The notes under the pieces were generated by a model that had not been told where the DNA came from, ran no database searches, and saw only the letters and a list, made by a program, of their open reading frames with translations. Position numbers and translations under genes: made by a program. This document shows positions 1-113 of a DNA stretch of 12,219 bases, piece by piece (position 1 is the first letter of the stretch; the number at the start of each line of letters is the position of its first letter). Origin of the DNA: Naegleria gruberi (taxonomy: Eukaryota); the NCBI GenBank assembly GCA_000004985.1, contig GG739003.1. One strand, 5' to 3'.

Positions 1-113
1 TTTTGTTTTTTTTGAAATTATTTGAGAGATTTGAAAAGTTTTAAATTGCTTTTGTAAAGAAAAATTGGTGCGCACGCAGTTTGGATGTGCTGAGGAAAAT
101 TAAAACGTACGAG
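1..113 (+). repeat. Copy A of a repeated intergenic element; 53-bp near-identical core at 61-113 plus conserved outer block 1-26 (inverted partner at 8683-8803)
   Basis: Direct comparison: 61-113 (aaaattggtgcgcacgcagtttggatgtgctgaggaaaattaaaacgtacgag) equals the reverse complement of 8683-8735 with 1 mismatch (52/53). The outer block 1-26 (ttttgttttttttgaaattatttgag) matches the reverse complement of 8776-8803 with one extra T in copy B. The linker between the two blocks is diverged with indels. The copy may extend beyond the window start. Confidence 0.8.

Follow-up and report, generated by a model that had tools for sequence, protein, structure and literature searches.

Genes and an inverted repeat on a small scaffold

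The window, by which we mean the whole stretch of DNA analysed here, corresponds in full to one 12,219-bp scaffold of Naegleria gruberi NEG-M. Its plus strand carries an NHL-repeat gene (product P0126) with its ATG at 730, followed by the gene of a Tet-like dioxygenase that ends at 4515. The open reading frame of the latter (3718-4512) matches the Naegleria Tet-like dioxygenase 4LT5/5CG8 with an E-value of ~1e-26. Two genes on the minus strand encode an acidic protein (4653-5459) and a protein of 254 amino acids (5978-6742). The plus strand then continues with a multi-exon 7-TM-like gene at 7007-8639 (P0130, 513 amino acids, ending in ...YYSEVIGN, with the stop codon ending at 8639), an SDR gene of the FabG/adh_short family, referred to as SDR-1 (8856-9713), and, downstream of 9713, NHL-repeat ORFs together with a TM2-domain gene. 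SDR-1 and the 254-amino-acid protein match N. gruberi NEG-M proteins exactly (XP_002668596.1 and XP_002668600.1, respectively), which, along with the Naegleria match of the dioxygenase, shows that the original prediction was mistaken in attributing the DNA to a nematode.

Two runs of N, probably assembly gaps, break up the NHL gene (974-1654) and the Tet-like gene (2974-3717). The annotated P0126 begins with the 81-residue N-terminal sequence of the NHL gene, and its model splices across the N run at 974-1654. It shows NHL repeats only; no RING or B-box is seen in it, the remainder of the gene lying in that gap, so that only the NHL part of the earlier TRIM-NHL label is confirmed.

Several of the genes carry features of their own. 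The product of the minus-strand gene at 4653-5459 is highly acidic and Glu-rich, with an N-terminal MGSAC motif as a possible acylation site, and the gene is made of degenerate 12-15-nt repeats (families D1 and D2) over positions 4650-5260. Tandem repeat units of ~165 nt (D3, D5, D7) at 9945-10937 encode successive NHL/teneurin-type beta-propeller blades; the NHL-repeat ORF of this region breaks at 10220, and an intron or a frameshift is suggested by this break. A sub-threshold C/D-box snoRNA-like match to snR60/Z15 (score 26.3 bits, gathering threshold 41, E = 0.97) falls at 7370-7456 within the first 7-TM exon and is probably due to chance.

The feature under study is an inverted repeat of ~115 bp with one copy at the left end of the scaffold (copy A) and the other in front of SDR-1 (copy B). 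The repeat finder resolves it into two pairs of arms, namely I1 (58-116 and 8680-8738; 59 nt, 95% complementarity, 56/59 matching) and I2 (1-25 and 8777-8801; 25 nt, 92%, ungapped). Copy A lies on the minus strand and consists of a core (58-116, 56/59 identical to copy B), a linker (27-57) and a second block, referred to as block 2 (1-26, TCAAATAATTTCAAAAAAAACAAAA), which forms a proximal promoter or leader block facing the left scaffold end. Copy B lies on the plus strand, in the sense of the SDR-1 gene, and consists of a core (8680-8738), a 38-nt linker (8739-8776) and block 2 (8777-8803, TCAAATAATTTCAAAAAAAAACAAAAC). Direct reading and a three-way alignment confirm that 61-113 and 8683-8735 are identical at 52/53 positions, as had been claimed, the sole difference being T/C at position 80. 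Block 1-26 likewise matches 8777-8803 apart from one extra T in the T-run, to which the last base has to be added, and the three-way alignment also bears out the mismatch of the linkers that join the blocks. The distances given for the cores are correct: the core of copy A ends 614 nt ahead of the NHL-gene ATG (730), and that of copy B 118 nt ahead of the SDR ATG (8856).

Taken as a whole, the inverted repeat is real, and a chance origin of a 59-nt match at 95% within 12 kb cannot be maintained. Each core contains one exact match to the 10-mer GCGTGCGCAC, at 68-77 on the minus strand in copy A and at 8719-8728 on the plus strand in copy B, the latter 137 nt ahead of the SDR-1 start codon. These two matches are the only exact ones in the window (shuffle mean 0.74 for ≤2 mismatches). 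The 10-mer contains the palindrome GTGCGCAC and is a candidate transcription-factor site. Among the 12,219 bases, the hexamer TGCGCA is confined to the two copies, with a single occurrence in each.

A spacer of 215 bp separates the 7-TM stop codon (8639) from the SDR-1 ATG (8856), and copy B takes up the greater part of it; its position 53-176 nt upstream of SDR-1 is seen directly. Block 2 of copy B spans positions -80 to -54 relative to the ATG and is followed by a leader of 52 nt (8804-8855) up to the start codon; the copy A counterpart of this leader lies off the scaffold. Two coding interpretations of the repeat were considered and rejected. A shared C-terminal exon was suggested by the opposite strand, which is open in the same frame in both copies, ends at the same block 2 TAA and has linkers differing by 6 nt. 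The annotated 7-TM protein, however, ends at 8639 (...YYSEVIGN), and the shared 'peptide' is without support. A 21-nt intron of the form GTACG...CAG inside the core was set aside as speculation, a supporting feature being absent.

The geometry of the two copies, which are inverted and bracket 8.6 kb, formally fits a composite transposon that would span 61-8735 and have the two copies as its terminal inverted repeats. The interior of such an element would, however, consist of the NHL-repeat, Tet-like dioxygenase, acidic-protein, 254-amino-acid-protein and 7-TM genes, in which no transposase is seen, and the repeats point outward into SDR genes without a defined terminus. The original prediction had judged a composite transposon unlikely in view of the ordinary interior genes; the lack of a transposase domain supports that judgement, and we regard the probability of such an element as negligible.

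Copy A and the probable position of a second SDR gene

Copy A touches the edge of the window, as had been noted, and since the window is the entire scaffold, this edge is the scaffold end itself. The copy reads leftward out of the scaffold, with the NHL gene behind it. Its earlier description as an element upstream of the NHL gene must therefore be revised, as it faces away from that gene and toward an inferred second SDR gene (SDR-2) off the scaffold end.

The second SDR protein of N. gruberi, P0003 (XP_002671706.1), is 88% identical overall to P0001 and identical to it over the first ~215 residues. P0001 is a near-identical allele of the SDR-1 of the window, and P0001 and P0003 are both encoded on one scaffold of 304,373 bp. 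The order and orientation of the genes on this large scaffold were read from their accession numbers. The rule was derived from two genes of the window, the SDR gene (EFC35852/D2W501) and the 254-amino-acid-protein gene (EFC35856/D2W4Z9), and states that UniProt numbers track scaffold position, while EFC numbers are given to plus-strand genes first and to minus-strand genes next. Its predictions were confirmed for the NHL gene of the window (EFC35849/D2W4Z6), for the 7-TM gene of the window (EFC35851/D2W500) and for the 7-TM gene of the large scaffold (EFC39024/D2VW63).

On the large scaffold, SDR-1 is D2VW62/EFC39023, SDR-2 is D2VW68/EFC38962 and the homologue of the 254-amino-acid protein is EFC38960. 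It follows from the accession order that SDR-1 and SDR-2 lie on opposite strands with five genes between them, so that SDR-2 is six genes from SDR-1, and that SDR-2 shares its strand with the 254-amino-acid-protein gene, one same-strand gene standing between those two. This gene order matches the layout of the window if SDR-2 is placed directly to the left of the NHL gene in head-to-head arrangement, in which case copy A is the 5' flank of SDR-2. From accession order and orientation we infer that SDR-2 starts just beyond the left scaffold end, on the minus strand. Both copies would then lie upstream of paralogous SDR genes in the same relative orientation, an arrangement that is seen directly for copy B and is given by the accession order for copy A. 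One observation counts against this explanation. An allelic NHL gene was not found on the large scaffold, where a query with the NHL domain returned the protein of the window only, and the five genes between SDR-1 and SDR-2 there thus include one without an assignment.

Altogether, we consider it likely that the two copies are the 5'-flanking promoter and leader of two inverted, head-to-head SDR/FabG-like paralogues, which lie ~8.8 kb apart with five genes between them. The 'element' is so the visible edge of an inverted duplication that comprises an SDR gene together with its promoter. A near-identical inverted duplication of this type would produce a scaffold that ends inside the repeat, as this is the expected outcome for an assembler. 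The context of the repeat is thereby corrected, from a module of the NHL gene to the promoter of duplicated dehydrogenase genes.

Duplication history and exchange between the paralogues

A decayed relic of the last 7-TM exon (8338-8382) is found at 280-325 on the minus strand, in inverted orientation. The local alignment score of the two stretches is 44, compared to 24.4 +/- 3.1 and a maximum of 35 for shuffled sequences, and blastn gives an E-value of 4e-5. The relic implies that the original inverted duplication extended past the promoter. Between the relic and the core of copy A, homology is no longer recognisable.

Residues 1-215 of the SDR-1 and SDR-2 proteins are identical, and residues ~216-250 are strongly diverged. 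This protein divergence and the decay of the co-copied piece of 7-TM exon indicate that the duplication is old. Despite this age, the 5' two-thirds of the SDR genes, compared as protein in their coding part, and the promoter are near-identical. Ectopic gene conversion between the inverted paralogues would most likely be the process that keeps the promoter and the 5' coding part alike. The paralogues share with known inverted segmental duplications under concerted evolution both their inverted arrangement with near-identical 5' coding halves and flanks, next to other parts that are strongly diverged, and the mosaic patches swapped between paralogues in different strains. They differ in that only one of the two genes lies inside the window, and the conversion tracts are deduced from mosaics of protein and flank.

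Evidence of such mosaics comes from a metagenome contig of a closely related strain (L001), which is 97.2% identical to positions 5957-9824 of the window. Its SDR protein, P0002, is SDR-1-like with an SDR-2-type patch at residues ~250-266, which documents mosaic exchange between the inverted paralogues across strains. The linker of copy B in L001 is homologous to the linker of copy A, with a z-score of 5.8 and 0/500 shuffles reaching the score; the two linkers are similar, not identical. The copy B linker of the window, on the other hand, is the most divergent 40-nt stretch in the 3.9-kb comparison of window and L001 (23/40 columns against a mean of 2.8%), and it is non-homologous to the A-type linker and to the L001 linker in either orientation. 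An origin by inversion of one of these two linkers was tried and rejected, with z < 1.5 in both orientations. As read from these alignments, this haplotype had its copy B linker replaced as one discrete 38-nt segment, and gradual drift is not the cause.

This replacement bears on the argument, made in the original prediction, that conserved blocks joined by a diverged linker point to constraint. The argument fails, as the linker was replaced wholesale and copy B of L001 has an A-type linker; a discrete replacement is unusable as evidence for constraint on the flanking blocks. The same linker also counts against a simple form of the conversion model, given that a continuous conversion tract alone does not explain a non-homologous linker in copy B of the window.

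Within the replacement linker (TTTTCATTCAAATTCGAAAA), positions 8744-8763 match positions 244-263 at 18/20 in the same relative orientation (I14). The latter stretch is found 130 nt away from the copy A core, on the distal side, and the match extends to a weak 99-nt alignment with an E-value of 0.006. Positions 244-263 could be the template of the linker replacement in copy B, or the match could be due to chance.

A further difference between the strains is located next to SDR-1. Synteny of the window and L001 stops 111 nt past the SDR-1 stop codon (L001 3850-4366 compared with the window from 9824 onward), and beyond this break L001 continues with a minus-strand TLDc-domain gene, while the window continues with NHL-repeat ORFs. 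The different downstream genes amount to a structural difference between strains beside the duplicated SDR gene. A crossover-driven inversion involving both SDR genes was considered as the reason for the TLDc gene at this place in L001; a simple crossover is unsupported, the SDR-2-like patch of L001 being short and internal.

Linker and relic also bear on the question of whether copy A exists as a separate locus. It could be an assembly artefact, in which an allele of copy B was misjoined in inverted orientation to the scaffold end and only one locus exists. Copy A does lie at the very end of a small scaffold with two internal gaps, and copy B of another strain has a linker that resembles that of copy A. 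That resemblance, however, falls short of identity, and copy A is flanked by a separate decayed remnant of the 7-TM exon, which is not expected from a simple misjoin. In addition, the large scaffold independently has a second, inverted SDR gene six genes from SDR-1, as copy A predicts. We therefore regard a misjoin as very unlikely and retain the inverted pair of SDR paralogues as the source of the two copies. The termination of the small scaffold within the repeat is probably a further consequence of exchange between these paralogues.

A conserved 10-mer upstream of heterolobosean SDR genes

The promoters of related SDR genes were compared for N. fowleri (L004), N. lovaniensis (L007), Willaertia magna (L002 and L003), two uncultured heteroloboseans (L005 and L006) and a third paralogue of N. 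gruberi type (L008), along with L001. Allowing for ≤1 mismatch, GCGTGCGCAC occurs exactly once each in L001, L004, L005, L006 and L007. Every one of these matches is located <140 nt upstream of an SDR ATG, and none is found elsewhere in ~62 kb of heterolobosean sequence. The positions relative to the ATG are -136 in L001, -115 in N. fowleri and about -104 in N. lovaniensis, and, in antisense orientation, -79 in L005 and -74 in L006. From base composition, we estimate a chance expectation of ~0.5 matches in the 62 kb and of ~0.01 in the promoter windows of ~1.1 kb. N. fowleri and N. lovaniensis have AAATTGTGCTGCGTGCGCAT(T/A)TTCAA in common, with the surrounding sequence shifted by indels. Both SDR promoters of Willaertia magna contain variants of GCGTGCGCAC with 2 mismatches within a block of ~45 nt that is common to the paralogues and ends in CAT(G/A)CGCAC(C/G)C, ~70-77 nt upstream of the start codons. 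The Willaertia paralogues also form a head-to-head pair. A metagenome search for heterolobosean SDRs returned only distant SDRs of 24-40% identity, none of which carries GCGTGCGCAC; the motif is absent from eleven distant SDR loci.

Conservation at the orthologous promoters thus exceeds that of the flanks, ~10-12 nt being kept while the remaining element is absent in other genera. On this comparison, GCGTGCGCAC with its GTGCGCAC palindrome is the part of the element on which purifying selection has acted over the long term; it probably serves as the site of a transcription factor. The orientation of the motif varies among lineages, which is tolerable for a palindromic site, yet weakens simple positional homology. 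Two claims of the original prediction are upheld in part by these results. Of the two palindromes noted in the core, GTGCGCAC is conserved across species, and CGTACG is not conserved outside N. gruberi among the SDR loci compared. Similarly, the proposed cis-regulatory module holds for the part comprising GTGCGCAC and GCGTGCGCAC, which SDR orthologues of four further heterolobosean genomes keep just upstream of the gene, but not as a free-standing module of unrelated genes, as the same promoter was duplicated together with an SDR gene.

Block 2 (TCAAATAATTTCAAAAAAAAAC) extends this picture to the third paralogue. It recurs as ATCAAATTATTTCAAAAAAAAATAGCAAAAC at positions 18-47 of L008, upstream of an SDR gene whose protein is 73% identical, and by this recurrence it is a candidate second conserved promoter or leader block, common to the third paralogue. 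Positions 49-138 of L008, immediately after the block 2-like sequence, contain a short ORF (MKATLPEEKK...) followed by GTTTGT...TTAAAG. This stretch could be an unannotated first exon with intron of the P0004-type gene.

The cross-species comparison also bears on whether the similarity of the two copies is purely neutral. According to such a reading, a recent duplication or conversion tract produced the similarity, the core has no regulatory function and the matches in other species are coincidental. The adjacent coding sequence is identical over ~215 residues, and homogenisation alone could therefore yield the flank identity of 95-98%. Coincidence, however, is difficult to reconcile with the occurrence of GCGTGCGCAC once per locus, in the proximal SDR promoter only, at five loci outside the window whose flanks are otherwise unalignable, where ~0.01 matches are expected. 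It is also difficult to reconcile with the retention of block 2 upstream of a paralogue with only 73% protein identity. A neutral origin is thus unlikely in our assessment.

A MITE or other dispersed repeat that landed by chance in two intergenic regions would share with the observed element its small size, its AT-rich context, its intergenic location and its two inverted copies. The observed element, however, has TTTTGTTTTTTTT... at one end and ...CGTACGAGCAG at the other, which are not inverted repeats of each other, a target-site duplication was not found around copy B, and the 26-nt core is without an exact match in JGI metagenome contigs or IMG/VR. Both copies, moreover, occupy the same fixed position and orientation relative to paralogous SDR genes, and in other genera only the central motif is kept at the orthologous promoter, the rest of the element being absent there. 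A dispersed repeat is accordingly highly unlikely, and the original prediction, which disfavoured a freshly inserted MITE, stands on the missing terminal inverted repeats and target-site duplication and on the fixed location beside the SDR paralogues.

The core could also represent a small structured non-coding RNA, a snoRNA or other, with block 2 serving as its promoter or terminator. A conserved core of ~59 nt with two palindromes and the T-run (TTTTGTTTTTTTT) beside the second block would suit this proposal, which the original prediction had raised. The element nevertheless matches no Rfam family even at E <= 10 and no tRNA, and it folds no better than shuffled sequences, with fold-energy z-scores of -1.8 to +0.66 for both strands of both copies and of the core. 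Near-identical copies of the element, in which compensatory base changes could be sought, number only three, and conservation across species covers ~10-12 nt only and not the full length. We conclude that the RNA reading is not supported and consider it extremely unlikely.

With respect to the preferred reading of the repeat as an SDR promoter, we postulate that a dimeric sequence-specific factor would most likely bind GCGTGCGCAC and control the SDR gene family, the conservation of the site being observed and the binding deduced from it. The palindrome C/EBP TTGCGCAA is an example of a dimeric bZIP-type site. Like palindromic promoter-proximal transcription-factor sites, GCGTGCGCAC contains a GC-rich palindrome, GTGCGCAC, located 70-140 nt upstream of the ATG, is kept across genera while the flanks diverge, and tolerates either orientation. 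It resembles C/EBP-type sites; no named motif family is assigned to it, and its half-site, GTGC, differs from known bZIP half-sites. We give roughly even chances to the more specific proposal that GCGTGCGCAC is the site of an undescribed heterolobosean factor, kept from before the split of Naegleria and Willaertia; the factor would control a small SDR/FabG-like family, perhaps a stress or xenobiotic regulon. On this proposal, the inverted SDR pair would be a natural system for studying the co-evolution of promoters and ectopic gene conversion in a free-living excavate. Both an inverted duplication with concerted evolution and a conserved palindromic promoter site are well-known kinds of features, and no new kind of genetic element is represented here.

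To our knowledge, very few promoter elements are on record for Naegleria, and GCGTGCGCAC, if its role is true, would therefore be among the first. Its location 70-140 nt upstream of the ATG makes it a concrete and testable candidate cis-element. A literature search found no paper describing Naegleria promoter motifs, and GCGTGCGCAC as a specific motif appears to be undescribed; among other sequence signals, N. gruberi uses AAUAAA poly(A) signals (PMC11529991).

Further features were observed at the SDR loci of the other species. The two Willaertia SDR promoters (L002 ~5670-5690 and ~4075-4095) contain a 17-mer, CAGAAATTTGCAAAGTC, in opposite orientations relative to the genes. It is located directly upstream of the shared promoter block and includes a small imperfect palindrome centred on TTTGCAAA. 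The annotated start of the Willaertia protein P0008 (6001) is probably too far downstream (L002 5813-6000), as an in-frame ATG 188 nt upstream of it opens a hydrophobic N-terminal segment, parallel to that of the 380-amino-acid paralogue P0009. The SDR promoters of both uncultured heteroloboseans are directly preceded by a tRNA-Cys(GCA) gene that contains an intron (L005 364-455 and L006 633-724), and L005 has a second copy of tRNA-Cys(GCA) downstream of the SDR gene, at 1547-1638.
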